A DNA stretch of 64,000 nt, from UHGV virus genome UHGV-0041117, one strand, 5' to 3'. Positions 11,413-61,114 of this stretch are shown here, one piece after another (position 1 is the stretch's first letter; each line of letters opens with the position of its first letter). The stretch comes from a virus. Both the position numbers and the translations under genes were made by a program. The notes beneath the pieces are model-generated. The model made no database searches and had not been told where the DNA came from. It saw only the letters and a program-made list of their open reading frames with translations.

Positions 11413-11708
11413 CGCCCGAGGGTAAGGTCAAGGCCAAAGTCAAGAAAGTGCTTACCGAGGCAGGGGTATGGTATGCCATGCCCCTGGGCTCGACCTTCGG
11501 TAAGCGAGGGGTGCCGGACTTCGTGGCTTGCTGCGATGGCCGGTTCCTCTCTATCGAGACCAAGGCGGGTAAGGGTAAGACCACGGCGCTGCAGGAGTAC
11601 GAGATGCAGCGGATACGCAATGCTGGCGGAACAGCCATCGTGGTCGATGACAGCAACGTGGGCGCCCTGGCGGAGTGGCTGGATAGTTGGAGACGAGGCG
11701 ATGGGTAG
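11409..11708 (+). CDS. VRR-NUC domain nuclease
   Basis: GTG start; GVPDFVACCDGRFLSIETKAGKGKTTALQEYEM matches VRR-NUC PD-(D/E)XK signature. Confidence 0.8.
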   Translation: MTPEGKVKAKVKKVLTEAGVWYAMPLGSTFGKRGVPDFVACCDGRFLSIETKAGKGKTTALQEYEMQRIRNAGGTAIVVDDSNVGALAEWLDSWRRGDG

Positions 11709-14386: not shown

Positions 14387-14681
14387 TTCTACCCGTATCG
14401 ACGGGGTCGGACGCCTTGTGGTCAAGACCAAGACCCGGTACGAGATTGCTGACAAGGACAAGCTGGCTCTGGCCCTGCTGCAGGCCATGGTCGAGAATGC
14501 CGAACAGGGTCGGGCCATGAGCGACGGCTTGTTGTTGCAGCAGCGTGTGGCCGCCCGCAACTTCGAGGAGCGGGCAGAAAATCTTGGCGTAGACGAAGCG
14601 GGCATGGACGCCTATGCAGCCGCCGCCGGCCTACGCCGTGTCATTGAACCTTCACTCACTTTCACTAAGGAGACAGCGTAA
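14235..14681 (+). CDS. coiled-coil protein, possibly Sipho_Gp157 / Mu Gam-like
   Basis: RBS GGAGGG, ATG 14235; 148 aa, N-terminal coiled coil then beta-rich segment; sits between HTH protein and putative SSB/SSAP. Confidence 0.4.
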   Translation: MSQSPLASLAAEYASVRRERKILQEQMDALEARETELQRSILITMASAGTSSTRIDGVGRLVVKTKTRYEIADKDKLALALLQAMVENAEQGRAMSDGLLLQQRVAARNFEERAENLGVDEAGMDAYAAAAGLRRVIEPSLTFTKETA

Positions 14682-15922
14682 TGAGCGAGTATCCCATGGT
14701 TGCCGTGGCCAGTTCTTTCCAGCCCCCGGTCGTCCCCCAGAATCTGGAGGCTACGGCCAACTCTCTGATGGAGAGCGCCTTCGACGGATTCGGCAACAGC
14801 CTGCGTATCCTCAAGCCGGGCAAGATGGACTTCGTCGTCGTGGAAGGCGGTCAGGAAGTGCGCATCCCCAACGGTGGCGTCGTCGGTGTGCTGCTGGGCG
14901 TGGCCCCGCATAACTACTGCACGTGGTACGAGCGGCAGTACAACCCCGGCCAGGAGCCTATGCGTCCCGACCTGTGTTGGGTGCAGCATGAGCCCGACTA
15001 CTACCCCGACGCCCTGCCTGAGATGTATCGTCGCAAGGTGAATATCCAGGGCCAGGAGCGGTGGGGGTATCGCATCGCCCGCCGGACGGTTTGGGCCCTG
15101 ATGACGGTGCAGGGCGACCAGATGTATCTGGACCTCAATCGTCCCGTGGTGCTGGACATCACGAGTATGAGCCTGTTCGGAAAGAGCGACACGCAGTCTC
15201 ACAGCTACCGCTGGGCGGGTCTCCGTGGGTTCTGCGACCGGTTCTCTCAGCCTGGTGTCTTCCAGTGCAACCCGGCCATGTTCCCCATCCAGATTGTCAT
15301 TGACCCGCAGTCCAGCGTGTCCGGCGTCGTGCTGTTCCGCCCGCAGATGGCCAATGGGTCCCCCTGCTATCTGGACAGCTCCACGTACACGGCCGTTATC
15401 GAAGCCGCGTCTTCTTCCTCCGTGGCGGAAATGCTCAAGGTCCGCGAGATTCTGACCTATACCCCGACCGGCGCCGCCCCCGTGGCTGCTCCCATGGCGT
15501 CCCCGGCTCCTGCCGCTCCTGTGGCTGCTCCTGCGGCTGCTCCGGTGGCTGCTCCCGTGGCTGCTCCCATGGCCGCTCCTGTGGCTGCGCCTGTGGCGGC
15601 CCCGGCCCCCGCTGCTCCTGTGGCTGCTCCTGTGGCTGCTCCTGCAGCGACTCCGGGGGAACTGTTGGCCCGCGCCGCTGATGTTCTCGGTAAGGCCGCC
15701 GCTGCCCAGCCTGCTGCCCAGCCTGCTGCCCCTGTCGTGCAGCCCGCACCCCAGGTTCCCCAGCAGCCGCAGCCCGTGGCCACTCCTGTCGTGCAGCCTG
15801 CGCCCCAGGTTCCTCAGCAGCCGCAGCCCATGGCCGCTCCTGTCGTGCAGCCTGCGGCAGCCAGCGTGAACGATGAGGCCAAGGCCGCACTCGGGGGTAT
15901 CATGGACGCCCTCGGCGTTTAG
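14681..15922 (+). CDS. putative ssDNA-binding / annealing protein with C-terminal (PAAPVAA)n low-complexity linker
   Basis: TAATG overlap with upstream gene, RBS AAGGAG; 413 aa; function inferred from context and tail architecture only. Confidence 0.55.
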   Translation: MSEYPMVAVASSFQPPVVPQNLEATANSLMESAFDGFGNSLRILKPGKMDFVVVEGGQEVRIPNGGVVGVLLGVAPHNYCTWYERQYNPGQEPMRPDLCWVQHEPDYYPDALPEMYRRKVNIQGQERWGYRIARRTVWALMTVQGDQMYLDLNRPVVLDITSMSLFGKSDTQSHSYRWAGLRGFCDRFSQPGVFQCNPAMFPIQIVIDPQSSVSGVVLFRPQMANGSPCYLDSSTYTAVIEAASSSSVAEMLKVREILTYTPTGAAPVAAPMASPAPAAPVAAPAAAPVAAPVAAPMAAPVAAPVAAPAPAAPVAAPVAAPAATPGELLARAADVLGKAAAAQPAAQPAAPVVQPAPQVPQQPQPVATPVVQPAPQVPQQPQPMAAPVVQPAAASVNDEAKAALGGIMDALGV

Positions 15923-19217: not shown

Positions 19218-19235
19218 GGAAGGTTTTGAATAGGG

Positions 19236-19286
19236 AAGCCCCCGTATCCTGCAGGCGAGCTTTGCAGGGTACGGGGGCTTTTTTGT
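19236..19286. terminator. rho-independent terminator between convergent gene arms
   Basis: GAAGCCCCCGTATCCTGCA...TGCAGGGTACGGGGGCTTC stem followed by TTTTTTG. Confidence 0.75.
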
Positions 19287-19920: not shown

Positions 19921-20535
19921 CTACCTCCCGGCGTTCCTGATTTCTTCCAGGGCGGCGACACGGGCTTCCATTTCTTGGAGCCACGCCCTGAGTTGCTGTG
20001 TGTCTTCTGCAGACGCGAAGCCAGTATGTCCGCTCGATGCGTAGTCCAAGTGGTCGAGCTTCTCGTGGGAGCGGACCCCTGGTGTACCAGGAGGTCCCGG
20101 AGGCCCTTGCAAGCCGGGTTCACCGCGCCGGCCAGTGGCACCTCGGGGGCCCGGTTTGCCGCGTTCTCCGGGGTCGCCCTTGGGCCCGGGTTCGCCTTGC
20201 TCGCCTCGTTCTCCCGGAACGCCGCGCTCCCCGCGTTTCCCCTGCTTACCTTCTTTCCCGGGTTCGCCTTGGGGACCGGGTTCACCACGGGGGCCCGGTT
20301 TACCGCGAGGGCCCGGATTTCCCTGAACGCCTTCCTGCCCGGGCTGGCCCGGAGGACCCTGGGGACCAGTCTTGCCGGGGTCGCCCTTGTCACCTTTGAG
20401 CGGGTCCCCCCAGCGCAGCATGAGAGGCGAGTTGCTGTCATACACCAACGCTTGGCCGTCCTCGCCGCCAGGCGGGAGGCCGAGGATGGGCACGCAGTTG
20501 GGCATCCCAGGCCTGGGGAAACTGTGTCTGGGCAT
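19921..20535 (-). CDS. collagen-like (Gly-X-Y repeat) fibre protein
   Basis: ~40 uninterrupted GXY triplets ([19 protein letters not shown]...); RBS AGGAGG. Confidence 0.8.
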
Positions 20536-32365: not shown

Positions 32366-34039
32366 TTAGCGTCCGCTATTTACGGTGAAGTGTGCTGTCC
32401 CCAAATCGAGGAAAGTCACTGGCTGGTCCCCTCGCAACTCCACCTCATACCACAGATGGCGTCCGATGCGAGGGATTCGTACTGGGGTCTCATCGTAGAT
32501 GAGCCGCGTGTAAGCGGCCTCTCCCCGTGCATTGTACAGCGTCATATCCACAGGGCCTCCGCCAATCTTGCACGAAACCGGAGACCACGCAACGCCCCGG
32601 GCCGGGGTCGCGCTGGCCATACGGTTGGCCCCAACCGCGTCCGGGCCCCCCGTCAACGGGCGGCTGCGCCAGTGATAGGGGCGCAGGGAATCAGCACTGT
32701 CCCAGGCCCAGACGGTGTCGTCTTCCAGCAGCAGGAGCTTGCCGGTGTTGGAGACCAGGCAGGCTACTGGCTTATCCGAGAGCGTGACCAGTTCTGCAGA
32801 TTCCATGTCCCCATAGGGGTCGCCGTTGATATTCAGCAGGAACGTGGCCATGTCCGTGGCGAAAAGGAGGAACCCTTCCCAGTATGCCATGCGGATAGTG
32901 TCGGGGCGGAGTTTCTGCCACTCCCGTTCGCCGAACCACTTCGCCGTCAGCAGATGCCATGCCCCGTTACTGCCCAGCAGGATGATGCCCATGGTCGAGG
33001 CATAGATGTACCCGTGCGGCGTCATCACGGCGGCATTGGCATAGCGGCACCCGATGTCAGGCAGGGGGGTCTCCACAGATACCACCGGAGAACACCGGTT
33101 CTCGTCACAGCTCGACGCGTCGATGATGTACGAGAAGGCGTCGGTAGTCACATAGAGCTTCTGGTCCAGCTCTCCCATATGCCGGATGTGGTAATCCAGG
33201 GTAAGGTCGTACTTAGCCGGCCAGTTGTGGGGCTGGAATGGCTCAGAGAAAAACACCCGGTTCCGCCGGAACCCAGCCAGGCGTATCTGGTCCCGGATAG
33301 ACACCACGCCCTGCATCCCAATGGGAGGCGTGCGGTCGTACTGAGTCTCGATGGCCGGGCCCAGGGCCACGGCCGGGAAGGTGTCCACAAACGACATGCT
33401 CGGAAACTCGATAGTCGTTACGTACAGGAACGCCGTCTGCGGTTTCTGAATCTTCCCATCCGCCGGGCGGAAGCCCGTCGTCGCCCGATAGATGTTGGCG
33501 GCTACGATGCCGTATCCATCAGGGGGCGTGGTGATGCCGGAAACAGTGACCGGCGTGCCGTCGTTGACACGCACAATGTTACTGGCGGGGCTGGGGGCGC
33601 TTTCTTCCCCCCACCGGTTGACGTAGGTGTAGACGTAGGAACGTGCGTCAGCTTCGCGGCTGCACTCACAGGTGGTCTCGGCCTTCGGTGGAGTGAGGGG
33701 GGCTGGAACACCAGCTGCGTAATACGTCGGATGGCAGTTCCGCGTCATCTCGACGACCTTGAGGCCGCCCCCCTCCACACCGGTGGTGTAGAACCGCGTC
33801 CAGTCAGGGCTCAGTTCCGCTGCTGTGACCACATCCGGCCATGATACGACGCAGCATCCATGCAGATGGAACGAGCGCGCTCCTGAGACAGCATCCGCGA
33901 AGTGCGCCCGCTCCCGCCAGGCTTCGAGGCGTCCATCCCGTAAGAGAGCGTCGTGTGCCATGGTCGCCTGCGTAGGTCCGAGGGAATGCTCGGACATGCG
34001 AGGGATGATACCGCCGAAACTGCTCAGAGTAGTGTTCAT
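32366..34039 (-). CDS. tail/baseplate-associated protein (557 aa)
   Basis: Large ORF between fibre-like protein and internal proteins. Confidence 0.6.
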   Translation of the reverse strand: MNTTLSSFGGIIPRMSEHSLGPTQATMAHDALLRDGRLEAWRERAHFADAVSGARSFHLHGCCVVSWPDVVTAAELSPDWTRFYTTGVEGGGLKVVEMTRNCHPTYYAAGVPAPLTPPKAETTCECSREADARSYVYTYVNRWGEESAPSPASNIVRVNDGTPVTVSGITTPPDGYGIVAANIYRATTGFRPADGKIQKPQTAFLYVTTIEFPSMSFVDTFPAVALGPAIETQYDRTPPIGMQGVVSIRDQIRLAGFRRNRVFFSEPFQPHNWPAKYDLTLDYHIRHMGELDQKLYVTTDAFSYIIDASSCDENRCSPVVSVETPLPDIGCRYANAAVMTPHGYIYASTMGIILLGSNGAWHLLTAKWFGEREWQKLRPDTIRMAYWEGFLLFATDMATFLLNINGDPYGDMESAELVTLSDKPVACLVSNTGKLLLLEDDTVWAWDSADSLRPYHWRSRPLTGGPDAVGANRMASATPARGVAWSPVSCKIGGGPVDMTLYNARGEAAYTRLIYDETPVRIPRIGRHLWYEVELRGDQPVTFLDLGTAHFTVNSGR

Positions 34040-34042: not shown

Positions 34043-35380
34043 CTAGTCCCAAATCTCGTCGGCTGTGAGATTCTCCACGCTATCCACCGCTTTGACCGGC
34101 CGGATGCTCACGCTCAGGGGGAAGTCAGACGGGAACCCATCGGCAGAATGGATAGTCAGCACATGCTGCCCAGCCTGATAGACCCCAGACGGCACGACGC
34201 GTAGCTGGACGCTGCTGGAGAAATCCAGCGTCGTTTCTGCTGCCAACGAATCCTGCCCCCCATTGATGACTGTTTCTGCAGTAGCCGTGGTCGAAAGTCG
34301 CATGATGTTATTCTGCACGACTTCATCGAGTCTGACCTGTACTTTGCCGGCCCAATCCCTATCGGCCACAGTGGCGATGTCGATGACGATAGGGGCCGTA
34401 TGCCGCAGAGTGAACGTGACATTACGACGCACGACTCCCGCAGCAGGTGCTGGCAGGAGGGCGAAAATCTCTGTCCCCGGGGCCCCTGCATCAGTGATGG
34501 ATACCACCGAACCGTACTCGTTGACTTCGACATCATACTGCCCCCAAGCGTATGTTCCCGCCGGGACTTCGAGTATTCGGTTGATGTTGAACACCAGGTT
34601 CTTCGTGTCGAGCTGGACATCGAAGCCGCCGAACCGGTAGGTGCCCTCCAAACCATGGGCTGGTTTGGCGATGCCGATAGTAGCGATTCCGGCCTTCTGC
34701 TCCATCTGCACGTCGATGCCGTACCCTGCGGCTATCCCATTGATACCAGAGGCCCCGGGGTCATCGTAGCTTTCGAGATGCCCGAACTGGTCGAACGTCA
34801 TCCCATTGATGGTGCCCTGGTATCCGCCGGTAGTATGAGAAATTTTGAGGGGGTCTTTCCCTGTCCCACTGCCAGCCACTTCGACACCGGTATTCCCGGC
34901 TTTGACCACGAAGGCCTCGGTAGAGATGTTCGCAGCTACGACAAAAGGGTTCCCGGACGTACCATCACCGGAGACGGTGACATTGTCCCCACCTCGGATG
35001 TTGCACCGCACAAGTGGGCGGCCCACAGTATCGCACTGGTAGAGGTTCCCAGCAGTCGCAGACGGGTTACAGAGATTGCTCCCTTCGGTATCCCCGGAAG
35101 CACAGTCAGCGGGAACCTGGGAGCAGGGTGGGGCGACGTAGAGCGGGAGGTCAGCTTTCTCGACACCGACAATGCAGCCACCTGAGACGATGACTTTACC
35201 ATACACCCCATCAGCCGGGGGATTGCCAGGTGCTACTTTGACACAGCGCCCATCAGACCACATGCGCCCCCCAAAGGGGAGGCATATTTCCCACACTGGG
35301 CAGTCCGCAGGGGCACCGGGGGTCACGACATCTACTGGTTCGCAATTCGCCGTAGGGCGGGGGATACATTTGTTGGTCAT
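34043..35380 (-). CDS. tail fibre/receptor-binding-like protein (~445 aa)
   Basis: ATG 35380 (MTNKCIPRP) preceded by GAGG; Cys/Gly-rich N-terminus, beta-rich body. Confidence 0.55.
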   Translation of the reverse strand: MTNKCIPRPTANCEPVDVVTPGAPADCPVWEICLPFGGRMWSDGRCVKVAPGNPPADGVYGKVIVSGGCIVGVEKADLPLYVAPPCSQVPADCASGDTEGSNLCNPSATAGNLYQCDTVGRPLVRCNIRGGDNVTVSGDGTSGNPFVVAANISTEAFVVKAGNTGVEVAGSGTGKDPLKISHTTGGYQGTINGMTFDQFGHLESYDDPGASGINGIAAGYGIDVQMEQKAGIATIGIAKPAHGLEGTYRFGGFDVQLDTKNLVFNINRILEVPAGTYAWGQYDVEVNEYGSVVSITDAGAPGTEIFALLPAPAAGVVRRNVTFTLRHTAPIVIDIATVADRDWAGKVQVRLDEVVQNNIMRLSTTATAETVINGGQDSLAAETTLDFSSSVQLRVVPSGVYQAGQHVLTIHSADGFPSDFPLSVSIRPVKAVDSVENLTADEIWD

Positions 35381-35450
35381 GGCGATACCTCGTGTGTCAG
35401 TGATACCGTAAAGCGCCGAGAAAGAAAAGCACGGTACTTGACACGTCTGC

Positions 35451-35480
35451 GGAATCGTGATTGGATGTCCGCAAGGGACA
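35451..35480 (+). promoter_or_regulatory. promoter-like TTGACA box on strand opposite to flanking genes
   Basis: TTGACA-17 bp-TTGGAT. Confidence 0.25.
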
Positions 35481-35582
35481 GGAGTGGTGCATCTCTCCAT
35501 TGCCGCCGAAGTCTGGTCGCCAGAAAACCAGGCATCGGAAATACCAGGGAAGAGGCCTCCGGCGGAAACGCTGGGGGCCTCT

Positions 35583-35615
35583 TGACATTTCCAGGCCTGG
35601 ATGATTGTATAGAGC
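35583..35615 (+). promoter_or_regulatory. promoter-like TTGACA box preceded by hairpin (GAGGCCTCC...GGGGGCCTC)
   Basis: TTGACA then TTGTATAGA about 17-20 bp downstream. Confidence 0.3.
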
Positions 35616-35847
35616 CATGCTACGCTCGTTTCGGTCTCCTAATGGTGCAGGGACGGGCAGCCTTCTGTAGCCGCCGAATTGGCAGAGGAAGTAGGCTTCA
35701 CAGACTGGCGCGAGGAAGGCGGTCCATCCCTGCCCTGGGGGGCAGATACCCGGCCCATAACGGGATACGAGACACTGCAGTGAATCAGCCAAGCCCGCTA
35801 CGCTGCCTTTACTGCACGCTGGCATACGGCATCACCTCATCCTAAGA

Positions 35848-35884
35848 AAGCAAAACCCCGTCTCGCGACGGGGTTTTGCCGTTT
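35848..35884. terminator. bidirectional rho-independent terminator
   Basis: AAAACCCCGTC-TCGCG-GACGGGGTTTTG; flanked by A-run upstream and T-run downstream, so it would terminate on both strands. Confidence 0.75.
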
Positions 35885-35891
35885 CTGGGGC

Positions 35892-36542
35892 CTATAGCGC
35901 CCGACCAAAATTCATCTTCACGATACCGCGCTGTTTCCGCAACGACCGGTCCACAGCAGCGCGCCCGAGCATCCTGTTGTACTCATTGTACAACTCGCCA
36001 CCGACCTTGAGATTTGTCCACGGTCGGCCAGTAATCAGCATGATGCCGGCCCTGGTCCCCATGATGAGCGTAGGGAACAACTCATCCCGAAAAGCAGCCG
36101 GCAGCACGCAGGCCGTAGGCGCGGGCACCACCGACATGTCCACGGCCACGACGCCCCCCTGGTTGAGGTGCAGGGTAAGGACTTCCTCGTCAGGGTCATA
36201 CCAGGCTTTGTCCCCCGCAGCACAGCACAGATGCTCCGGTGCCGAGAACGACCTGGGGACCTGGTGCGAACCGCACTCCTCATTGCCTGTCGGAATGTGC
36301 CGCAACCCTGTGATAGCGACCATGGTCATGCCATCCGGGGATTTCACAGCGTAACGGGTGACTTCGGGCTGGAGCGTGATGCGGACGCGCCTATGGATAA
36401 GAGGGGCGCGCCGGCACATGTCCGTCGCAGTACGCAACAGGTAGTAGTCGAACAGCTCGACAGGAAGGTCGGGCCACTCGAAGCGCAGCTCGCTGTGGAA
36501 CTCACTTAGCGGGACTGTCGGGAACGGCTCGTAGACGACCAT
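35892..36542 (-). CDS. hypothetical head/neck protein (216 aa)
   Basis: RBS GGAGAAGAGAG; ORF. Confidence 0.55.
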   Translation of the reverse strand: MVVYEPFPTVPLSEFHSELRFEWPDLPVELFDYYLLRTATDMCRRAPLIHRRVRITLQPEVTRYAVKSPDGMTMVAITGLRHIPTGNEECGSHQVPRSFSAPEHLCCAAGDKAWYDPDEEVLTLHLNQGGVVAVDMSVVPAPTACVLPAAFRDELFPTLIMGTRAGIMLITGRPWTNLKVGGELYNEYNRMLGRAAVDRSLRKQRGIVKMNFGRAL

Positions 36543-37200
36543 CTTCTCTCTTCTCCATGGTCTGGCGGGCTATCTCGTGCTCCAAGAGCTTGAAGTATGT
36601 TTGCTGGTGAGACAGCGCCAACTGAGTGATGGTGCTGTTGTTCTCCGAATCCATGGACAGGGCCCGGTACAGCATCCACTGCTTGACCATGGCCACCAGC
36701 CTATTCGGCACCTCCAGCACCTCAGAATGTCCGTCAGGCTCCACGTAGCTTTCGAGCAGCACATAATGCGGCTTCGTATCTGCCGGAGACACTGGCGGGT
36801 ACACGCGGAACATCGAGCTGTCCGTCGTGCTGACGCTGTAGCTGGTGAGGGGCCCGCCTGCATGGCAGCGGGAAGGCCCCCCACTCCAGGTATTCACCTC
36901 GTCGTCCATGACCCGCGAAAGGGACCGCAGAATTTGCCGCCCATCCGCCGTGGTCTCACCCAGGATACGCACTATTTCGGCATCACCGCCGCTGACGATG
37001 GCCTCCTGCCACCGATTACCGGGCTCAACACGCACGACATGTCGCGCGAGGAACTCATCCCGGAACTGATGACTGAGCGTAATGACAGCTTCGGACAAGT
37101 ACGACTGCAACTGCGGCACAGGCCAGCGTGTGTACTCGTGACCTGGCTCCTGGTCGTTGAGGTCGACAGAGACCTCCCGGATGATATGCGAGGCCAACAT
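36502..37200 (-). CDS. hypothetical head/neck protein (232 aa)
   Basis: ORF in head module. Confidence 0.55.
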   Translation of the reverse strand: MLASHIIREVSVDLNDQEPGHEYTRWPVPQLQSYLSEAVITLSHQFRDEFLARHVVRVEPGNRWQEAIVSGGDAEIVRILGETTADGRQILRSLSRVMDDEVNTWSGGPSRCHAGGPLTSYSVSTTDSSMFRVYPPVSPADTKPHYVLLESYVEPDGHSEVLEVPNRLVAMVKQWMLYRALSMDSENNSTITQLALSHQQTYFKLLEHEIARQTMEKREDGRLRAVPDSPAK

Positions 37201-38792: not shown

Positions 38793-39746
38793 CTAGTTGA
38801 TGGCGTCGAACGTCCAATAGCCCATGGCCAGAGCATCGGGGTAGATGACTTCCGCACCCCAGGCCACCAGATACTGGTAGCGCACGCCGAAGCTGTTGGG
38901 GTCGCTGGTGTTGAGTCGGGCCTCGATGATGTTGGAGGCATACGCAGTAGCCTCCTTGTGACCGGCCATGATGAAGAAGCTGAGGGCGCCGCTCTCGTCC
39001 ATGCGCACCGGGACGTGGATGGACTCGATGGCGGTGAAGCCCATCAGCGGGTGGTTCCACATACCGGACACGATGCCACCGCACTCGCAACTCCACAGGG
39101 AGTTGGAGTAGTTGGACATGGCCAGATACGTGCGCAGCACCGGGGGGACGATAATGAACATCTCGCCATCCACCCAGCGCTTGGACTCGATGAGCACGCG
39201 CTGCAGGTCGGCCAGGACTTTGGGCAGGTTCTGGGGAGTCACGTGCACGGGATGCCCGGGCGTACCCAGATTCACGTCATGGTTTCGGCCAGCAGCACCC
39301 AGAGAAGTCACCGGGGAGACCTGAGCCATCATGCGGCCCAGGACGTAGCGACGCATAGCTTCCACGTACGACTGGTACATGGATTCCAGCAGCTTCTCCT
39401 CGAAGGAGCTCCAACGCTCGCAGGCCATCTTGATGTCCGTGGTATCGAACTTGATGTCCTGATACCCGAGGTTGCAGATGGTCAGGCAGCGCGCATCGGT
39501 ACTCACCGTGCTGGGTACGAGCTGCTGGTTTTTCTGGTAGCTGCGCAGCGGGCCGACTTCGGGGGCCTGCATAATCTGGATGACCTGGTTACACCGGGTA
39601 ACAGGCTCCAGCAGCTCAGAGGCCGTGATGCGGGGAAGCCAGTCTTCTTCATAAATACGGGACAGGATGAAGTCACTGTACCCGACCCGGGCGAGAGGGG
39701 TGGCCTCAATCCCCGGATAGCCGCTTGCACTGGGGTAAATAGGCAT
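38793..39746 (-). CDS. major capsid protein candidate (317 aa)
   Basis: RBS GGAGTAGGAG; immediately downstream of scaffold-like gene; size fits HK97-fold capsid; assignment is by position. Confidence 0.5.
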   Translation of the reverse strand: MPIYPSASGYPGIEATPLARVGYSDFILSRIYEEDWLPRITASELLEPVTRCNQVIQIMQAPEVGPLRSYQKNQQLVPSTVSTDARCLTICNLGYQDIKFDTTDIKMACERWSSFEEKLLESMYQSYVEAMRRYVLGRMMAQVSPVTSLGAAGRNHDVNLGTPGHPVHVTPQNLPKVLADLQRVLIESKRWVDGEMFIIVPPVLRTYLAMSNYSNSLWSCECGGIVSGMWNHPLMGFTAIESIHVPVRMDESGALSFFIMAGHKEATAYASNIIEARLNTSDPNSFGVRYQYLVAWGAEVIYPDALAMGYWTFDAIN

Positions 39747-39758: not shown

Positions 39759-40769
39759 CTATTGTGCGGGGTTTGCGGCGCGCCATTCCTTGAGCATCTC
39801 GCGATACTGGTCGGGCGTGATTTGCCGCGTTTGCATGAGATTGTTCAGGTCCGCCAACGTGTACGTCACCGCCGGCGCCGGGGCAGCAGGGGCTACACTG
39901 CCTGCCGCAACCTGGACAGGGGCCACAGTAGTGATAGCGTCACCTTGGGGGGCACGCTGTTTGAAGCGGTCCACCATGTCGATGACGTACTTCGCATTCC
40001 CAGCGTTGAACTCTTCCGTGGCAAGCTGGTCGCGAGTGCGGCTGCTCATGCCCTCGGGCTGCTGCAGGAAAGCGCGAAATTCGGGGTCCTGGTAAAGGGA
40101 GAAAAAGTCGGGATGCACCCGCAAGATTTCATCCCTGAGCTGCTGTGCACGAAGCTGCTGCATATTCTGACTGTTCGCGGCCACGCTCTGCTGCAGAGCA
40201 GCGCGCTGTGCTGCGAGTTCCTGCTGCATCGCATCAATAGAAACGTGCATGGCATTGGCGGCAGCCGCAGCAATACGCCGTGCGTCGTTAGGGTCCACGG
40301 TCTCCAGGTCCCCCAACGTAGCATCCCGGGCGAGCGTATCGGACAGGGCGCGCTGCTGCTTGTCCAGTTCCCACTCACGCTGCTGCTGCCGCAGCGCCTG
40401 CAGGTCAGCGCTGCTTTTCTGGAGTTCGGCCGTCAAGGCGTCCCGTTCCGCCAGAAGCTGCTGCCGCTGCATCTCAAGCTGTTGACGCGCCATATCATAC
40501 GGATACGGAGGCGCAGGCTGGGGCGCCGGCTGAGGCGCAGGCTGGGGCACCGGCTGAGGTGCAGGCTGAGGAATAGGCTGGGGAGTGGGCTGAGGAATAG
40601 GCTGGGGAGTGGGCTGAGGTGCAGGCTGGGGAGTGGGCTGCGGCGCAGGCTGGGGAGTAGCCGCAGCGGCTTCGGATACTGCATAGCTTTCACGGAACCG
40701 CTGCGCCATATGCGGCACCTTCGCAAAGGCCGCCTGCGTCTGGGCGGAATCGTTAAGGGTCTGGGACAT
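39759..40769 (-). CDS. scaffolding-like protein (coiled coil with PQPTPQPA repeats)
   Basis: 336 aa, N-terminal (PQP[TAI])n repeats, long Gln/Leu/Ala/Arg-rich coiled coil; located between portal and capsid. Confidence 0.5.
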   Translation of the reverse strand: MSQTLNDSAQTQAAFAKVPHMAQRFRESYAVSEAAAATPQPAPQPTPQPAPQPTPQPIPQPTPQPIPQPAPQPVPQPAPQPAPQPAPPYPYDMARQQLEMQRQQLLAERDALTAELQKSSADLQALRQQQREWELDKQQRALSDTLARDATLGDLETVDPNDARRIAAAAANAMHVSIDAMQQELAAQRAALQQSVAANSQNMQQLRAQQLRDEILRVHPDFFSLYQDPEFRAFLQQPEGMSSRTRDQLATEEFNAGNAKYVIDMVDRFKQRAPQGDAITTVAPVQVAAGSVAPAAPAPAVTYTLADLNNLMQTRQITPDQYREMLKEWRAANPAQ

Positions 40770-42290: not shown

Positions 42291-42544
42291 AGCAAACTCC
42301 CGATGATGTACCCGATGAGGCCCCCGTACAGGAGCCCACGAACCGTATTGCAACAGATGCAGTCGTTTTGCTTGAAGGGGAACAACCACACCTTGTAGAA
42401 GAAATCATAGACCTTATTCGCGGGTTTTTCAATGTCCGAATCGTACAGCCAACCGTGGCAGAAATTCACGTTGTCGCAGAACCACGCCACGAACTTATAT
42501 GCCCACGTCCCCGGCTTGGGTTTCGGGGTATCCCACAATTCCAT
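42287..42544 (-). CDS. small protein with C-terminal hydrophobic anchor (85 aa)
   Basis: C-terminal GLLYGGLIGYIIGSLL; lower-GC segment. Confidence 0.45.
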   Translation of the reverse strand: MELWDTPKPKPGTWAYKFVAWFCDNVNFCHGWLYDSDIEKPANKVYDFFYKVWLFPFKQNDCICCNTVRGLLYGGLIGYIIGSLL

Positions 42545-44508
42545 TACGCTTCACCTCCTGTGACATCAGCAACGACACCAGCCCCAGTAGGTGACGCCGG
42601 CATGGGTGCGGGGTTCGGATTGTTCCCAGCACCAACAGGCATGTCCATGGCCCCAAGCACGGCATCCGGGACGCCCATCGAGCCGAGGAGCTTCTGCAGG
42701 CTCCACGAGAGCACGGGGGCTATGTTGATATTCTGACCCAGGGAGCTGGCAGCAGCCCCAACAACTTGCAGAATCTCCATCGCCGACTGCTTCTCCATCT
42801 CCTTCTGGAGGAGGCCTTCGGCGCCCTTGGTAATGATTTGGGAATCCCCCTTCACGTTCATATCCTTGGCGTACAACATATTCATGTTGTAGAGCAGGCT
42901 ACCCAAAGGCTGGAAAACCCCGTAGGCGATGTTGTCCGTCGCGGCGTGCAACGCCTTAGTGGCGTTCCCCTGCAGCATGGACATACCACGGAAAGTACGC
43001 ATCGCGCCGGACCCGACAGCTTCCCCGTGCAAGGCCGCAGGAATATTGGTCACACGGTCGGCGAGCTGCATGAACATCTCCATAAGCTGCGCGTACGCCG
43101 GAATGTTGGATGGGATATGTGTGAACCGGAATGCTGGGATGTTGGAGTTCCCCAAGTCGGAATCGGACAAGTACATGCCCCCGGGCACGAGCTGACCGAT
43201 TTCCCCTTCCCCCAGGTACGCTGAGATGCGGCGGTAATCGGCTTCGCAGATAGGAGCCGATGCATTGGCCGCATTGCGCAGAAGATACATGAGGCTGGCA
43301 AGGTAAGCGCGCTCGATGTCGCGAAGACGCTGCGCGATGCCATCCCCAGCGATACGGTCCCCGCCGGTCTTGTAGAAGCTCGCGGTGTAGACCGGGCGGG
43401 TCTGCATCTTCGGGTCGGAGAAGACCCTCACCTCGATGACGCGCCCAGCCACAAGGGAAATCTGGCAGTTGTAGAACTCCGACGCCGTGAGCCCCTTGAT
43501 GTCATATTTCTGCAGCTCACGACCAGACATGAGCCCGTAATGCGTGAGGACCTCAATAGGGCTCACATTGGACGACCACAGCGCCATATTGCGCTGGGCC
43601 GCGTCCGGGGACCTGGACAGCCAGCTCAGGTTGAAATCTGGGCTGGAGTCGGCATCTTTCAAGACATCCAAAATCGTCTTGGAAATGTATCCCGGCAGCA
43701 TGGCGGCATTCATCAGCTCTCGCCGTGTCCACAACGTCCGGGTGAAAATACACGTCCCACGCTGCGTATCCGGGCTGTCGGGGGAGTACACGAAGTCGAA
43801 CGGGCTGATAGCCCGAAACGTGGGGAAGACCTCCGTGCTGATACGCGGCTTGTTTCGTCCCCAGACGAGGCGCGGAGCCCGGGTGATGTATGGGCCAGCA
43901 AATACTGCGTAAGGGTACACCGGAAACCATTGGAGGAAATCGGTCAGGGCCCGCGTGAAACCACCTTCTGCACACTGGTCTTCCATCAGAAGCAGCATGG
44001 CATCGGCAGACTTCTTGGCCTTCTCCTGCTCACGCTCCATCATCACACGTTTCTGCTGGCGTATCGCTTCGATAAGGAGTGCCGGGTCGCCGCCGAAATT
44101 GGTCTGCTGGAGCTCACGCTTTACCGCCTGGAACACCTCGTCTTTGGCGACAGGCGAGATGTCCGGGCGGGGCGTAGGGATAATCGTCCAGGGGAGTGCT
44201 GCGTCACCACGGCTCGTAAGAGCGTCGTTAAGGTAGGAATTGGCGATGTCAGATTTCAACGCAGTGAGGTTGATGTAAACGTCGACGCCGAGCTCGTCTG
44301 CGCGTTTTTTGGCATCACACGACATGATGCCATTCTGCTGATTCCAGCAGTTCTCCAGCACATCACGCAGAGGGCGCCCATTCACCAACTCCGCAGACTG
44401 CCATGCCACGGCCCCATTGAACCGCTCCATGACAGCATCCGCCAGAGGGTCCTGCGCTTTGGCAGGGATGTCCTCGATTTCCAGCATCCATCTGATTTCA
44501 TCGCTCAT
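42544..44508 (-). CDS. portal protein candidate (654 aa)
   Basis: RBS AAGGGGA; size and position immediately downstream of terminase large subunit. Confidence 0.6.
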   Translation of the reverse strand: MSDEIRWMLEIEDIPAKAQDPLADAVMERFNGAVAWQSAELVNGRPLRDVLENCWNQQNGIMSCDAKKRADELGVDVYINLTALKSDIANSYLNDALTSRGDAALPWTIIPTPRPDISPVAKDEVFQAVKRELQQTNFGGDPALLIEAIRQQKRVMMEREQEKAKKSADAMLLLMEDQCAEGGFTRALTDFLQWFPVYPYAVFAGPYITRAPRLVWGRNKPRISTEVFPTFRAISPFDFVYSPDSPDTQRGTCIFTRTLWTRRELMNAAMLPGYISKTILDVLKDADSSPDFNLSWLSRSPDAAQRNMALWSSNVSPIEVLTHYGLMSGRELQKYDIKGLTASEFYNCQISLVAGRVIEVRVFSDPKMQTRPVYTASFYKTGGDRIAGDGIAQRLRDIERAYLASLMYLLRNAANASAPICEADYRRISAYLGEGEIGQLVPGGMYLSDSDLGNSNIPAFRFTHIPSNIPAYAQLMEMFMQLADRVTNIPAALHGEAVGSGAMRTFRGMSMLQGNATKALHAATDNIAYGVFQPLGSLLYNMNMLYAKDMNVKGDSQIITKGAEGLLQKEMEKQSAMEILQVVGAAASSLGQNINIAPVLSWSLQKLLGSMGVPDAVLGAMDMPVGAGNNPNPAPMPASPTGAGVVADVTGGEA

Positions 44509-44543: not shown

Positions 44544-46052
44544 TCACACCAGGCGGGCCAGGGTACTACGTCGCTGCACCAAACGGTCTCGAACTTGATG
44601 GGCCGTCTGGTCCCCGTCTTGCTCATCGCCCCGCATAATCATCAGGGCCGCGTACTGGAGCGCGTCGTGGACATGGCTCGCATCGTTTTTTTCTGGCGAG
44701 GGTGTGTACACAGCCCCCATCGTACCGCTAGCACGCAGCTTTCGGTACCGGTACTCATGGATAAATCCTCGTATGAGCATCTGACATCTGGGGTCAATGA
44801 GCAGGCCACCGGTCCGCTGATTGAGCATGTGCTCCACAGTCTGGATACGAACCTTCGGGTTATTGGACAGCTCAGTCACAGCGTTGATGCCCACATCGGC
44901 GAAGCGCTCTTTGGGTGTCACCGCCTGCCAAGAGTCGCGCGTATTGCTCGGGTCAATGGCGGCGACGACAGGATTGGTACTGTACCGCTCCCGCAGCAGG
45001 GGGACCAGCATGCCGTAGAGGAAATTCTCGAACCCCTCGTTGTCAGCGTACAACTCATCCAAGACACACCACCGCCCCTGCAGATTCTGGAGCACCACAG
45101 CGGCAGGATGGATGCCAGACTGGTCCACCCCGATGACGACAGGATGGAATGGCCTGGGCTCCAACGGTGTCTCCGAGACGTGGTAGGACTGATTGAAATT
45201 GGAGTAGACCGGCTTGCCGTCGATGATGGGGACATCCAGCATGCAATACTGGTTATCCACGATGTCTGTCCGGCCGGTCTTCAACAGGGCGTCAATCTGG
45301 TTGCGGTAGTACCGCATCCCCTGCTGCTCCGGGGTGAAATCCTCCGGGTCTCCTTCCTCCTTGGCCCCGAGGTTGCGCAGGTTCTCTGCATCCGGGTTAA
45401 TCTCGTACGTCACCTGACCCATGGCGTCGACTCTCTTAAACGCCGCCGGCGGCTGCCGAAACACGGCCCAGTTCGGCTCCGGGTTCCGTATGTACTCATC
45501 CAGCCAAGAGCCGGGCTCAGGCTGGTTGAAGTCCATGATAGTGCCACCCCAGGAGATACCCCCAAGGTCTTGGGGCGGAAAACGCCCGATACGCCCGGTC
45601 ACAGCGTTGTACACCTCTGGAGTGCAACCCGTGGCTTCGTTCATCCATGCATAGGTCCAGTTGGCCGAGCGGAGCTTCGGGGCATCATCCGCTGTTTTCA
45701 AAGCCCACAGTTCCAGCTCCAGAGAGACCTTCGTGCCATCCGGCAGCGGGATGAGGTAATACCCCTTCACAGGAGAGCCTGAACTCGCGATAGTGCCACA
45801 CTCAGGCGGGAGGACTTCCAGCAAAGAACGCCGAGTCGTGGAGAGGAGTTCCGGGTATGAGGACCGCACCACGCCGACACGCACATATCGTACACCATCC
45901 GGGGCCGGGTTCTGGGCGCAGGCGTACGCCAACACGTCCACAGCGCAAGCGCATGATTTGCCTGAGCCGTAAGGGCCCAGAATCATTTTGAGATACTTGT
46001 CACAATTATGCAACTGCAGGCCCGTGGGGCTAGGCACGTAATTGAACATCAC
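44544..46052 (-). CDS. terL: terminase large subunit
   Basis: Walker A ILGPYGSGKS, Walker B-like YAWMNEA, C-terminal nuclease-like region; 502 aa. Confidence 0.85.
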   Translation of the reverse strand: MMFNYVPSPTGLQLHNCDKYLKMILGPYGSGKSCACAVDVLAYACAQNPAPDGVRYVRVGVVRSSYPELLSTTRRSLLEVLPPECGTIASSGSPVKGYYLIPLPDGTKVSLELELWALKTADDAPKLRSANWTYAWMNEATGCTPEVYNAVTGRIGRFPPQDLGGISWGGTIMDFNQPEPGSWLDEYIRNPEPNWAVFRQPPAAFKRVDAMGQVTYEINPDAENLRNLGAKEEGDPEDFTPEQQGMRYYRNQIDALLKTGRTDIVDNQYCMLDVPIIDGKPVYSNFNQSYHVSETPLEPRPFHPVVIGVDQSGIHPAAVVLQNLQGRWCVLDELYADNEGFENFLYGMLVPLLRERYSTNPVVAAIDPSNTRDSWQAVTPKERFADVGINAVTELSNNPKVRIQTVEHMLNQRTGGLLIDPRCQMLIRGFIHEYRYRKLRASGTMGAVYTPSPEKNDASHVHDALQYAALMIMRGDEQDGDQTAHQVRDRLVQRRSTLARLV

Positions 46053-49716: not shown

Positions 49717-51075
49717 TTAGGCGTCCATGGTGCCGTAGTCGGAATAGACCATCAGCTTGCCATTGTCGCACTGAATCTGGTTGCCGGCGGTTTCGGAAAT
49801 CATGGAACAGCCCAGAGAGCCATCCGGGTTGTCGACCATGCCGTTGACGATGTTCTTCACCGAGTCCGTAATGTCGGCTTCCGTGAGCAGGGCGCCCTTG
49901 TCAGTACCAGTCTTGATGAGGTTGCCGCCGTCGGCAGACACGACCTTCACAGACAGTTTGCCGTCGGCACCGGCCTTGATAGCGTTGTCGGTGTCGGAAG
50001 AAATCGTGTTGGTGAAGTCCACCACGATGTTGCCGCTTTCGTCGAACTTGATACCGGTGCCCAGCTTGGCAGAGATGGTATGCCCCGAAATGGTGATACC
50101 CTGACCGGCGGTGTACACATCCACGAGGTCGGTCACATCCACATAGGTGTCAGCCACGGAACCATCGGACAGGGCCCAGATAAAGTGCAGGTACACACCG
50201 GATTTCAGGCCCACCCCAGGCGTGAAGCTGACAGTGCCGCTGACCGTGGTACCGCTGACCGCGAACGGGACAGAAGCGGACGACGTGTCATCGAACGTCA
50301 CCGTGGCCGGGCTGGAGCCACCTTCCGCAGTCTTGTCGTCGCCGTTGAACACAGCACGCACAGCAGCGACCGAGGTACCGCCTTCGGCCAGCTCGGTGGA
50401 GTATTCGGCAGTACCGGCGGAACCCTTGGTGGTCGTCACCTGGACACCCACGGCATCAGACCAGGCGCCGTTCTGGTCGCGGAAAATCAGGGTCAGGTGG
50501 TAGTCGCCTTCGACAGTTTCACCACCGGCATCGGGCTTACCATCCGTCAGTTCCACACCCTTGAGCACGGAAGTGCTGGACGGGATGGTCACGTTGGCGA
50601 CTTCGGTGGAACCGTCATGGCCGATGAGTTTCAGCTTACCGGAGGGCTGGTCGTAGGTCATGCTGAGGTCAGCAGCAACCTTGCCCTCGGCGTCATGCAG
50701 AATCTTGTCGCCTGCGCGGATGATGAGGTTGGCGTCGGGAGCCTTGGCATACAGCTTATTGTCAGTACCCACGGACAGACCGTTGTTGGCGTCGGTGGAC
50801 ACCAGGTCGGTAGCCACCGTGGTCATGTCCAGGGTGAGCGCCACATCGCCAGCGAGGGTGCCCTCGGTGGAGCCGTTCACTTTCAGATGGGTGTCGCCAG
50901 TAACCTTGCGGTCTTCACGGGCCATAGGGATACCACCGGCGGTGGTACCGTCGTGGACGACCACAACCTTCTTATCGGTATCGACAGTCAGTTCGCCGAC
51001 TTTGCCGGTGTACGAGGCATGCTGCGCAGTCGTACCACGATACTGCTGGATAGCGTCGGGAGTTTTACGAGCCAT
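49717..51075 (-). CDS. tail fibre protein (452 aa)
   Basis: Same N-terminal fibre domain; beta-rich Gly/Thr/Ser repeats; central region paralogous to 51144..52682. Confidence 0.7.
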   Translation of the reverse strand: MARKTPDAIQQYRGTTAQHASYTGKVGELTVDTDKKVVVVHDGTTAGGIPMAREDRKVTGDTHLKVNGSTEGTLAGDVALTLDMTTVATDLVSTDANNGLSVGTDNKLYAKAPDANLIIRAGDKILHDAEGKVAADLSMTYDQPSGKLKLIGHDGSTEVANVTIPSSTSVLKGVELTDGKPDAGGETVEGDYHLTLIFRDQNGAWSDAVGVQVTTTKGSAGTAEYSTELAEGGTSVAAVRAVFNGDDKTAEGGSSPATVTFDDTSSASVPFAVSGTTVSGTVSFTPGVGLKSGVYLHFIWALSDGSVADTYVDVTDLVDVYTAGQGITISGHTISAKLGTGIKFDESGNIVVDFTNTISSDTDNAIKAGADGKLSVKVVSADGGNLIKTGTDKGALLTEADITDSVKNIVNGMVDNPDGSLGCSMISETAGNQIQCDNGKLMVYSDYGTMDA

Positions 51076-51143: not shown

Positions 51144-52682
51144 CTAATTAGTAGCCGGCATATCCCCACGGTCCATGGGCGTGTAGGCGCCCTTGTCCGA
51201 GCCAGACACCAGAAGGTTGTCCTTATCCGCAGACACGACAACGACCTTGAGCTTCTTGTCCGAGCCAAGGCGAAGCACGTTATCACTGTCAGCGGAAAGC
51301 AGCTTGGAACAGTCAATCCCGATGGAACCGTCGGTGTTAATCACGATAGGGCTGTCTTCGCCCGTACCCAGGTCAAGAACAAGGTTGTTGTCCTTGAGAG
51401 TCAGACCAGAACCAGGAGAGACCCCAAGACCACTCACCGGGTCACATTTGATAGCTCCCTCGGGATGGAGCTTCACGGACACTTCCCGGCTGGCGCTGAT
51501 GTCGATACCACACCCGGCCCTGTAGATGTCGACAAGAGCCGACACATCCACATAGACATCCTGCACAGTACCGACAGCCAGCGCATACACGAAGACCAGA
51601 TAGGTTCCCGGAATGAGCCCGACGCCAGGCTCGAAAATAACTTCGAGCCGCGTAGCCTCCGGCGTCACGATAATACGGGTGCCGTCAGCAAACTGGAGTG
51701 CTGCGGTGCCGTCGATGAAAAACTGCTCCGCCGTCTGCCCATTGAAAATACCGCGAACCCGGACAGCACCCATGCCCGCAACAGATTCGATACTAGTCGA
51801 CACGGCTGCGCTTTTATGCGTCCGCACCGTGGCCGGGACAGGGTCGCCCCAGACGCCATCGGCCTGGGCGAACATGAGCGAAAAATGGTAGTCGCCCTCG
51901 ATGTCCTCACCGCTCTCACTGGGCATACCATCCACGAGGTAAACACCCTTGAGCGAAGAGCTTGCTCCGGGGACGCGCACCGTGGAAATCACAGTCTGAC
52001 CATCATGGCCCAGGATGTCGAGCTTGCCGGTGTCAGGCGAATACGCCAGCGAGAGCTCGGAGGAAATGCGCCCGTCCTTGTCTTCGTACAGGATAGCATC
52101 GCCCCGATTCAGGATGTCATCCATGGACAGGTACACACCCTTGTCGGAGCCGGGATGTACCAGGTTCCCCTCATCTTGAGAGATGACAGGGAGATTGTCC
52201 TGGATGTTTTCCTTGGTCAGAATGATTTTTCTGTCGACAGGGTCGATGGTCAACAGATTGGTGTGTCCATTGGACAGCATGTCATTAGGCGTGAGCTTCG
52301 CCCCGCCATCACTTCCGACCGTGACCAGGTTATCAGTATCCGCAGAAACCACGGTCTGGTCGACGAACAAGCCACCATCACTGCCAACCTGCAGTTCATT
52401 CCCGCTGTCCCTGGAAACAAGGCCCTCGGCAGTAGCCGACATGTCCGGGACGTACAACATTCCGCCGCGCACCCTCAAAGCATTACCAGCTTCGGGAGAG
52501 ACAAAATCACCAGCGCGGACAGTCAGGCCCTCGGAGTCAGATTTCAGAAGGTTAGGTGCCCCGGAAGAATCGGCGCCGCCCAAAGGAAGGGCTGCTACGT
52601 CAACGAACTGCCCGTCAGGGAGCTCGGAAAACTGCTTATTCGCCGGGTCGCGAACAATGGGGCGCTTCATAGGTTTCGCCAT
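51144..52682 (-). CDS. tail fibre / receptor-binding protein paralog (512 aa) lacking the conserved N-terminal domain
   Basis: RBS AAAGGAGA; LSLAYSPDTGKLDILGHDGQTV...GEDIEGDYHFSLMF aligns with LSMTYDQPSGKLKLIGHDGSTE...GETVEGDYHLTLIF of neighbour. Confidence 0.7.
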   Translation of the reverse strand: MAKPMKRPIVRDPANKQFSELPDGQFVDVAALPLGGADSSGAPNLLKSDSEGLTVRAGDFVSPEAGNALRVRGGMLYVPDMSATAEGLVSRDSGNELQVGSDGGLFVDQTVVSADTDNLVTVGSDGGAKLTPNDMLSNGHTNLLTIDPVDRKIILTKENIQDNLPVISQDEGNLVHPGSDKGVYLSMDDILNRGDAILYEDKDGRISSELSLAYSPDTGKLDILGHDGQTVISTVRVPGASSSLKGVYLVDGMPSESGEDIEGDYHFSLMFAQADGVWGDPVPATVRTHKSAAVSTSIESVAGMGAVRVRGIFNGQTAEQFFIDGTAALQFADGTRIIVTPEATRLEVIFEPGVGLIPGTYLVFVYALAVGTVQDVYVDVSALVDIYRAGCGIDISASREVSVKLHPEGAIKCDPVSGLGVSPGSGLTLKDNNLVLDLGTGEDSPIVINTDGSIGIDCSKLLSADSDNVLRLGSDKKLKVVVVSADKDNLLVSGSDKGAYTPMDRGDMPATN

Positions 52683-61027: not shown

Positions 61028-61114
61028 TCACCTATTTTCCATAAGGCCGGAGATTACGGCCGCGAGGGCCCACAGACCGGTATTCACAATAGCAGCATAC
61101 GTGAAAACGCTCAT
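61028..61114 (-). CDS. 28-aa hydrophobic peptide, truncated paralog of gene 60225..60413
   Basis: RBS GGGAGG; ATG overlaps upstream TGA (ATGA); MSVFTYAAIVNTGLWALAAVISGLMENR; ~52-bp DNA repeat with synonymous-only differences. Confidence 0.4.
   Translation of the reverse strand: MSVFTYAAIVNTGLWALAAVISGLMENR

Follow-up and report, generated by a model that had tools for sequence, protein, structure and literature searches.

Several small RNAs (sRNAs) of phages and prophages, such as DicF, IpeX and the AsxR/AgvB RNAs of Stx phages, have their own sigma-70 promoter and Rho-independent terminator. A comparable organization is known for morons, independent promoter-terminator units found between genes of phage late operons, as illustrated by gene 15 in the tail operon of HK97 (PMC3594210). 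In virulent Pseudomonas phages, ONT-cappable-seq revealed antisense and non-coding RNAs (ncRNAs) and opposite-strand promoters in or beside structural regions, as well as bidirectional terminators between convergent units, for which roles in blocking read-through and regulating neighbours were proposed (PMC10914365). Here we analysed a 510-bp gene-free island, at positions 35381-35891 of a 64,000-nucleotide stretch (hereafter the window) of virus genome UHGV-0041117, which represents most of the genome, with about 60% GC, of an uncultured podovirus-like phage of the human gut. We give an even chance to the explanation that this island is the non-coding occupant of a recurrent cargo slot and comprises, on the + strand and antisense to the structural genes, a pair of promoter-to-terminator units in tandem. 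These two predicted units probably make small non-coding RNAs.

The island is located between two virion genes of the - strand, encoding a 216-aa structural protein at its upstream border (phrog_437; 35892-36542, stop codon 35894-35892) and a 445-aa protein with no family assigned at its downstream border (34043-35380). It is non-coding, and the 510-bp non-coding island of an earlier note on this DNA is thus real. Codon-position GC periodicity was absent in all frames, with every position between 0.56 and 0.60, versus a GC2 of about 0.45 and a GC3 of 0.65-0.76 in the flanking genes, and counts of synonymous and non-synonymous changes (S/N) in the six frames revealed no synonymous excess. Five island haplotypes were available (window, L001/L035, L036, L057 and L058), the protein cluster P0001 counting 76 members. 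The two long open reading frames (ORFs), a - strand one of 142 aa and a + strand one of 135 aa, had been described as lacking a ribosome-binding site. Both exist, do not look coding and have no match in PHROG, but the 142-aa ORF does carry, in the window, a Shine-Dalgarno (SD)-like GAGGTG 9 nt before its ATG, which is weaker in the sister haplotypes. An ATG at 35500 would open an in-frame extension of 40 codons for the 445-aa gene, but only in the haplotype of the window; the four sister haplotypes all have a TGC to TGA change at 35471-35469, which closes this start and leaves a 9-codon upstream ORF. The composition of the island does not deviate from that of its surroundings (GC 0.581 vs 0.585-0.604 in the flanks). 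As previously proposed, it is the largest non-coding gap of the window, the sole bigger apparent gap, 11709-12318, looking coding. There, the C-terminal part (11710-12318) of an ORF at 11473-12318 harbors four repeats of a motif of about 45 aa (…L/R-x-GW-S/T-x-E/D-x-A…), which resemble tandem helix-turn-helix DNA-binding modules.

The + strand of the island displays two TTGACA boxes, at 35438-35443 and 35582-35587; the earlier note had recognised both but placed them at 35451, 13 nt off, and 35583. The first box forms the -35 element of a predicted promoter, P1 (35421..35466), which includes the A-tract AAAGAAAAG (35421-35429), a 17-nt spacer, a TG at 35458-35459 and the -10 hexamer TTGGAT at 35461-35466, with a predicted start at about 35473. 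The second belongs to P2 (35582..35610), TTGACA-N14-TGA-TTGTAT, with again a 17-nt spacer, a TG-extended weak -10 and a predicted start at about 35617; the string TTGTATAGA sits at 35605-35613. The -35 hexamer of P2 overlaps, or is formed from, the T-rich tail of the hairpin T1 described below. By itself, the hexamer TTGACA shows no enrichment, with 18 sites in the window vs 24 expected. However, about 11 of the 18 sites are intergenic and ahead of genes, and the hexamer therefore marks promoters in this phage. Both island boxes fit the extended pattern TTGACA-N14-TG-N-TTG-N-AT perfectly (TTG(G/T)AT; TTGACA-N14-TGNTTGNAT), and P1 and P2 are its only sites in the 64 kb, even with two mismatches, where our own estimate gives about 0.002 perfect matches by chance.

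Other intergenic perfect TTGACA boxes with a weak -10 located 17-18 nt downstream were found at 7439, 13944 and 15926 on the + strand and at 46618, 53796, 62083, 62384 and 63114 on the - strand. For several of them (7439, 15926 and 46618), a GC hairpin follows directly, at the predicted transcript 5′ end. The phage seems to rely on -35-driven host-type promoters.

Each predicted unit ends in a hairpin. The presumed terminator of unit A, T1 (35550..35583, + strand), is GC-rich; its arms are 15 nt long, its loop is GAAA and UUGACAUUUCC comes next. On the + strand its 15 pairs are contiguous, two of them G.U, and the free energy is -32.2 kcal/mol; on the - strand, where those two pairs become C.A mismatches, it is -22.4 kcal/mol. 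A polymorphism at 35558 converts a U.G pair into C-G. This hairpin had been noted before only as preceding the second box; its presence is confirmed, and it is now assigned to unit A, the better supported of the two units. T2 (35850..35879, both strands), GCAAAACCCCGTC-TCGC-GACGGGGTTTTGC, is a perfect 13-bp stem with a 4-nt loop, lying 12 nt beyond the stop of the 216-aa gene, between that stop and the end of unit B. Its tails are T-rich in both directions (CGTTTCT on the +, TTTCTT on the - strand) and its stability is equal on the two strands (-25.2 and -26.2 kcal/mol), so that it has the sequence features of a bidirectional intrinsic terminator, which it is predicted to be. The bidirectional terminator of the earlier note is therefore retained at about -25 kcal/mol on both strands, with corrected limits (35850-35879), the string given for it having one G too many; its predicted second role, closing the upstream head/adaptor genes, is supported as well.

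The T2 stem is invariant in the five haplotypes except for the outermost pair, and its loop is inverted in L001. The window has about four strong hairpin terminators, among which only T2 is within the head-to-tail block; a very strong 20-bp hairpin terminator at 19235-19281 occupies the convergent junction of the + strand replication and - strand virion blocks. The loop inversion is exact between close haplotypes with the same stem (TCGC at 35863-35866 in the window vs GCGA at 6677-6680 in L001, + strand). It recurs in the terminator loops (~6682-6686) of a sister clade described below, with GGGCA in L006 vs TGCCC in L008 and AGGCA in L010 vs TGCCT in L009. These at least three independent loop flips point to recurrent template switching or cruciform processing at palindromes.

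Analysis of the folding of the two units revealed a strand preference. The body of unit A (35473..35549, + strand), with two small hairpins and a predicted RNA of about 115 nt including T1, showed a fold z-score of -4.3 on the + strand vs -1.7 on the - strand. For the body of unit B (35616..35849, + strand), whose predicted RNA of about 265 nt extends from P2 to T2, the values were -3.4 and -1.6. The 84 control strand-windows had a mean of -0.49 with a standard deviation of 1.12, and only one of them was at -3.4 or below; the most negative control value (-4.7) was obtained in the neighbourhood of ~62000. A long inverted repeat with imperfect arms (35647-35665 / 35715-35733) lies in unit B; complementarity is 84% across 19 bp in the window and reaches 95% across 20 bp in L001, the lone mismatch there being a G.U pair on the + strand.

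The same junction, gathered from about 30 related gut-phage contigs, has variable contents. In relatives at 41-55% protein identity, the flanking genes overlap by 4 nt or abut in four contigs (L025, L026, L027, L033) and have 51-61 nt between them in three (L022, L028, L030), this short gap holding a sense promoter, TTGACR-N17-TAT(A/G)G(A/G), about 20 nt before the ATG. The slot of L032 contains an additional same-strand gene for a Cys-rich protein of 177 aa (4690-5223). Opposite-strand cassettes are present in L023 (4681-5791) and L024 (4682-4966), with a PAPS reductase and a small protein, and in L029 (4683-6441), with Bro-N and three small proteins. Each cassette starts with an A-rich tract followed by TTGACA-N17-TATTAT/TATTGA and is closed by a bidirectional terminator, analogous to T2, directly next to the stop of the 216-aa gene. 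The first cassette genes of L023 and L029 are mutually homologous, and the GC content of these two cassettes is below that of the flanks (0.43 vs 0.50 and 0.50 vs 0.55, respectively). The 13 loci of the sister clade (65% protein identity) have an ORF-free gap of about 265 nt; in the clade of the window, the island reaches 510 nt and its boundary architecture is the same as in the cassettes. The junction is therefore a recurrent insertion site for opposite-strand accessory units.

Among the cassette products, a Cys-rich small protein is common to L023 (78 aa) and L029 (72 aa), the 72-aa copy giving a sub-threshold match to the CapR domain, and a hydrophobic small protein is common to L024 (94 aa) and L029 (99 aa).

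The + strand of the window was aligned, outward from the start codon of the 445-aa gene, with the sister-clade gap. Both line up in the same order, with the SD region, the invariant AAAGAAAAG, TTGAC, a 17-nt spacer, TT(G/A)(G/A)AT and, later, T1 or the terminator; the sister-clade counterpart of P1 is AAAGAAAAG..TTGACT-N17-TTAAAT. The promoter-proximal 92 nt are homologous between the clades (global alignment z = 4.1-4.7; 0 of 500 shuffles reached the score), and T1 is the positional counterpart of the sister-clade terminator, including its T-rich tail. As regards conservation in relatives, the island as a whole is absent from most of them, while the P1 promoter region has a homologue in the sister clade. 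A possible origin of unit B as a duplicate of unit A was rejected as not significant, 10 of 300 shuffles scoring as well. A repeat scan of the window, covering template/variable pairs of diversity-generating retroelements and duplicated elements, gave none involving the island.

The promoter hexamers of the island are evolutionarily protected. In the P1 region (35421-35475, 55 nt), all 10 variable sites are outside the 23 element positions (A-tract, -35, TG and -10; p ~0.002 by our own estimate). These elements had been fixed before L058 was fetched, and the seven new L058 sites alone give p ~0.017. In P2 (35582-35610), the four variable sites all fall within the 14-nt spacer (p ~0.04, again our own estimate). 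The sister clade independently has the same footprint, with none of its eight variable sites in promoter elements (P = 0.0022). The opposite-strand promoter-like boxes of the earlier note are supported as sigma-70-type promoter elements.

Constraint on the predicted transcribed regions was evaluated from the density of variable sites, which in the three flanking genes is 0.116-0.132 at codon third positions and 0.009-0.039 at first and second positions. The body of unit A with T1 has a density of 0.037 (4/109), about three times lower than third positions (Poisson p ~0.003, own estimate), and that of unit B 0.092. In the sister clade, the 50 nt directly after the antisense -10 are the least variable of a 4-kb alignment (pi 0.011 vs ~0.10), and this core forms two hairpins with compensatory changes at three pairs. 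The covariance that was to be looked for is found in the sister-clade unit, with three covarying pairs, but not among the five haplotypes of the island clade itself. Of the two units, A is the better-supported element: the P1 region has its homologue in the sister clade, and the unit A body is under constraint. The earlier note had favoured an ncRNA of about 260 nt started from the second box; that preference is not borne out, this unit being present in one lineage only and, at 0.092 variable sites per position, near neutral.

Based on these data, the following course of transcription is proposed. A host RNA polymerase of sigma-70 type would use both P1 and P2. From P1, an RNA started at about 35473 would end at T1, giving about 115 nt, or about 400 nt in the case of read-through of T1; from P2, an RNA started at about 35617 would end at T2, giving about 265 nt. 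These RNAs would then accumulate. T2 would also halt the head/adaptor transcript arriving from the opposite direction, and the downstream genes would be restarted by a weak promoter located back-to-back with P1, or be reached by read-through. Unit A may be the functional core, acting either as a base-pairing regulatory sRNA or through divergent transcription that interferes with the adjacent tail-gene promoter. Unit B would be a younger add-on under weak constraint, placed between T1 and the stop of the 216-aa gene.

Searches for a known RNA family or target gave no match that would specify this function. The Rfam search asked for in the earlier note, performed on the whole window at gathering thresholds, yielded no match, and a permissive search (E up to 10) only terminator-hairpin look-alikes, such as rnk_pseudo with 36.4 bits for a threshold of 55. 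No tRNA or tmRNA (transfer or transfer-messenger RNA) was detected by ARAGORN. The longest perfect complementarity between the island RNA and the rest of the window is 12 nt, which is at chance level, shuffles giving 12-15 nt, and the RNAduplex target scan returned meaningless long duplexes only. One such chance-level 12-nt match pairs CUCCUAAUGGUG of unit B (35636-35647) perfectly with CACCAUUAGGAG (7493-7504), the SD region of the + strand gene starting at 7512, 8 nt ahead of its ATG; this gene is downstream of the TTGACA promoter at 7439. A mimic of a CRISPR repeat (RNA anti-CRISPR) or of a type III antitoxin was set aside, as no tandem repeats and no repeat-like unit were recognised, no comparison with spacer or repeat databases having been made.

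Direct support is available for the anatomy of the locus, the lack of coding signal, the history of the slot, the protection of promoter elements, the constraint on unit A and the strand asymmetry of T1. Several observations nevertheless weigh against two RNA-producing units. Both -10 hexamers, TTGGAT and TTGTAT, are devoid of the usual A at position 2, for which reason a generic promoter scan misses P1 and P2. With sigma-70/sigma-A, an extended -10 TG makes up for weak hexamers, and such promoters are common in Gram-positive bacteria. No significant alignment links the transcribed bodies of unit A and of the sister-clade unit (z ~1.3-1.4), whose equivalence is positional. Unit B is restricted to one lineage, two exact-pattern scans of IMG/VR for island copies having given only the sister contig, and its body evolves near the third-position rate, that is, almost neutrally. 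The conserved core of the sister clade also holds, on the sense strand, an SD and a 15-codon mini-ORF, which would be compatible with a sense role.

The folding data call for similar caution. The raw difference in minimum free energy between strands is ordinary for this genome, half of the control windows differing by at least 8.5 kcal/mol, and the strand evidence is therefore made up of the z-scores and T1 only. Several haplotype differences in the inverted repeat of unit B turn mismatches into pairs, but losses are also present. Double compensatory changes number 0 among the five island haplotypes and the covariation term of RNAalifold is slightly unfavourable (+2.12), in a set whose divergence is too small. 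Mismatch-to-match changes in inverted repeats could alternatively result from template switching at the DNA level, a process that these hairpins evidently experience in view of their loop inversions, without selection on RNA.

The leading alternative is a sense-strand regulatory leader, which we regard as unlikely. According to this explanation, the island matters as - strand RNA or DNA: T2 ends the head/adaptor transcript, the rest of the island is a long structured 5′ leader or a promoter region serving the downstream genes, which could include hairpins for processing or stability, mini-ORFs upstream, or a late promoter dependent on an activator, and the + strand promoters are incidental. 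Transcription must indeed restart past a strong terminator, and a sense promoter for the downstream genes would be expected here, since short-gap relatives carry TTGACR-N17-TATRGR at exactly this junction; the suggestion in the earlier note that a late promoter for the tail genes may lie in the island gains plausibility from this. A weak candidate was located on the - strand (35400..35428), with TTTTCT at 35428-35423, a 17-nt spacer and TATCAC at 35405-35400, about 19 nt upstream of the ATG at 35380, and from this layout we infer a candidate promoter for the downstream genes. Its position is conserved in both clades, the sister clade having TTTTCT-N17-TATCAC/TATTGC at equal distance from the ATG. 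It stands back-to-back with P1, the two -35 elements being about 10 bp apart around the invariant AAAGAAAAG/CTTTTCTTT tract, but its own -35 fits only 3/6. The invariant core of the sister clade has GGAG-N9-ATG followed by the 15-codon sense ORF, and the clade of the window has a 31-codon sense mini-ORF with 3/3 substitutions synonymous, but the two differ in sequence and length and are unrelated. Furthermore, T1 is 10 kcal/mol weaker on the - strand, the fold z-scores are weaker on that strand as well, and the protected positions fit the -35/TG/-10 layout of the + strand in two clades. The leader also overlaps with our preferred explanation, two opposite-strand units in a cargo slot, which already includes T2 and a sense promoter.

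Ranking next, and likewise doubtful, is a decaying relic, in which the island would be the leftover of an opposite-strand protein cassette, or junk from illegitimate recombination at the terminator hairpin, and its RNA functionless. The promoter and terminator would persist only since T2 and the divergent promoter region serve the structural genes. The almost neutral, lineage-specific body of unit B is in line with this, as are the persistence of two ORFs of at least 135 aa in a 60% GC stretch and a GC content similar to that of the flanks (0.58 vs 0.59-0.60), unlike the fresher, lower-GC cassettes of L023 and L029. However, eight cassette proteins compared by tblastn with the island and the sister-clade gap gave no credible match (best E 0.04, on the wrong strand), and no residual codon periodicity is seen. 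Moreover, unit A is constrained, the P2 elements are protected although they serve no structural gene, and the sister clade retains an invariant core that is predicted to be transcribed.

Translation of one or more small proteins, from a GTG ORF on the + strand (35484-35585), a 34-codon TTG ORF (35679-35783) or the 142-aa ORF of the - strand, is considerably less probable. The alignment in frame of GTGGTGCATCTCTCC..GCCGCC in the window with ATGGTGCTGTTCTCC..GCCGAC in the sister clade, with a 3-nt indel, could suggest it, as could the GAGGTG of the 142-aa ORF. Against this, no frame shows GC3 periodicity, S/N counts are unremarkable in all frames (2 S and 2 N for the GTG ORF by our own count), the + strand ORFs are badly spaced from their SD, the frame is interrupted by a 7-nt indel in the loop of the sister-clade hairpin, and the two long ORFs have no PHROG counterpart.

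A cos/pac packaging site, as the earlier note had envisaged, a genome terminus or another DNA-level site such as an origin is very improbable: although the region is rich in inverted repeats and a 62,077-nt sister-clade contig (L005/L050) and the ENA contig L043 end inside the equivalent terminator hairpin, the ends of the former re-join into a normal gap minus 9 bases within the hairpin arm, many other contigs, including those of this lineage, span the site, some 9 kb separate the island from the terminase gene, neither iterons nor an AT-rich stretch were detected, and the region is missing in relatives with overlapping genes and therefore not an essential packaging site of the family. The end of L005 (IMGVR_UViG_3300045988_169709, position 62077), the start of L050 (position 1) and the end of L043 place the break of two independent assemblies at one and the same base, which lies within the terminator hairpin, 47 nt beyond the 216-aa gene. 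Probably the assembler failed at an inverted repeat that flips back and forth and was present in the sample in both loop orientations, which makes the 62,077-nt contig a complete circular assembly.

The genome surrounding the island is organized in two blocks. The replication block, on the + strand up to about 19.2 kb, encodes a DNA polymerase A, a primase-helicase and an SNF2 helicase. The virion genes form a long - strand block in which the terminase comes first in transcription order, with the large subunit (TerL) at 44544-46052. It is followed by the portal (42544-44508), a scaffold-like protein (39759-40769) between the portal and the major head protein (38793-39746), and an SU10-type adaptor (36502-37200, Pfam PF24175) before the 216-aa gene. 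Beyond the island, the 445-aa gene, whose SD GAGG (35391-35388) lies 7 nt before its ATG (35380-35378), precedes that of an internal virion protein (32366-34039); all these genes are on the - strand. DNA and protein searches of a cultured-phage database gave no match for the island or either flanking gene, and the closest cultured TerL proteins, from Rhizobium and Pseudomonas phages, are only about 30% identical. The related contigs derive from human-gut metagenomes. A search for the host or a prophage in 185,579 reference species genomes turned up no relative, and no integrase was found among the phage ORFs scanned.

Various repeats were observed elsewhere in the window. Arrays with a 12-nt period, Ala/Pro-rich when translated, are located within coding regions at 15461-15862, the end of the + strand gene 14681-15922, and at 40484-40684, the N-terminal part of the scaffold-like gene. 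Within the gene 19921-20535, a collagen-like Gly-X-Y stretch of a tail-end protein is suggested by imperfect repeats at 20114-20396, whose periods are 9 and 18 nt and which are GGN-rich on the - strand. Two adjacent - strand genes (49717-51075 and 51144-52682), the first with an Mtd_N domain (N-terminal domain of the major tropism determinant), have in common a 54-nt segment with 72% identity (49891-49944 / 51186-51239). The pair probably represents paralogous tail fibres and not a diversity-generating retroelement, no search for a reverse transcriptase or for template/variable repeats having been made there. Finally, a 55-nt direct repeat with 93% identity (60359-60413 / 61060-61114), whose copies are 701 nt apart and both end in ...CTCAT, looks like the duplicated 5′ ends of two - strand genes.

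At a more speculative level, the junction could be a dedicated cargo bay, whose boundaries, an opposite-strand host-type promoter and a bidirectional terminator, are kept while the cargo is swapped. RNA would be the cargo in two lineages, namely a conserved sRNA of about 115-190 nt (unit A and its sister counterpart) plus, in the lineage of the window, an RNA of about 265 nt, acting on the host or on late-gene timing. Examples would be an sRNA for anti-defence or host takeover, or a switch linked to the tail-gene promoter that stands back-to-back with P1. We hold this extended proposal to be rather unlikely as a whole. Very little is known of regulatory RNAs in uncultured gut phages, and gene callers pass over them. 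This locus offers a concrete candidate, with predicted 5′ and 3′ ends for two RNAs and a conserved sister-clade counterpart that is common in human-gut metagenomes. In addition, a single junction of one phage family holds nothing, a sense promoter, protein cassettes or non-coding units, and therefore represents a natural experiment on the gain and loss of accessory cargo, RNA included. Should the RNAs not be expressed, a clear operon boundary made of a bidirectional terminator and divergent promoters would still be described. Overall, the locus is a well-delimited, testable candidate in poorly explored phages, unproven and not conceptually new.

Compared with the systems mentioned at the outset, the island resembles morons in being extra DNA between structural genes that are adjacent in relatives and in using a slot which, in relatives, holds classic accessory genes (PAPS reductase, Bro-N); promoters and a terminator of its own are predicted from sequence. 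It differs from them in the absence of protein-coding cargo, in a GC content equal to that of the flanks and in its orientation opposite to the operon. Given that the scanned ORFs include no integrase and that the phage has its own DNA polymerase, expression from a repressed prophage is therefore not an obvious rationale here.

The island shares with phage sRNAs a size of 100-270 nt, the succession of a promoter, a structured body, a GC hairpin and a U-rich tail, all predicted in this case, and a position in the accessory genome; the part conserved in the sister clade is the 5′ part. It has no sequence or Rfam relationship to DicF, IpeX or AsxR/AgvB, and its RNAs are predicted from sequence. 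Back-to-back divergent promoter pairs with a common upstream A/T tract are a general bacterial arrangement, which P1 and the candidate sense promoter reproduce around the invariant tract, with the difference that the sense promoter is weak and putative. The predicted units also recall the antisense RNAs and bidirectional terminators of the Pseudomonas phages, with opposite-strand promoters in or beside structural regions. Unlike those RNAs, which were seen experimentally and mostly overlap coding genes, the two predicted units occupy a dedicated gene-free slot. On these comparisons, the island reads as a candidate non-coding moron or phage sRNA locus.

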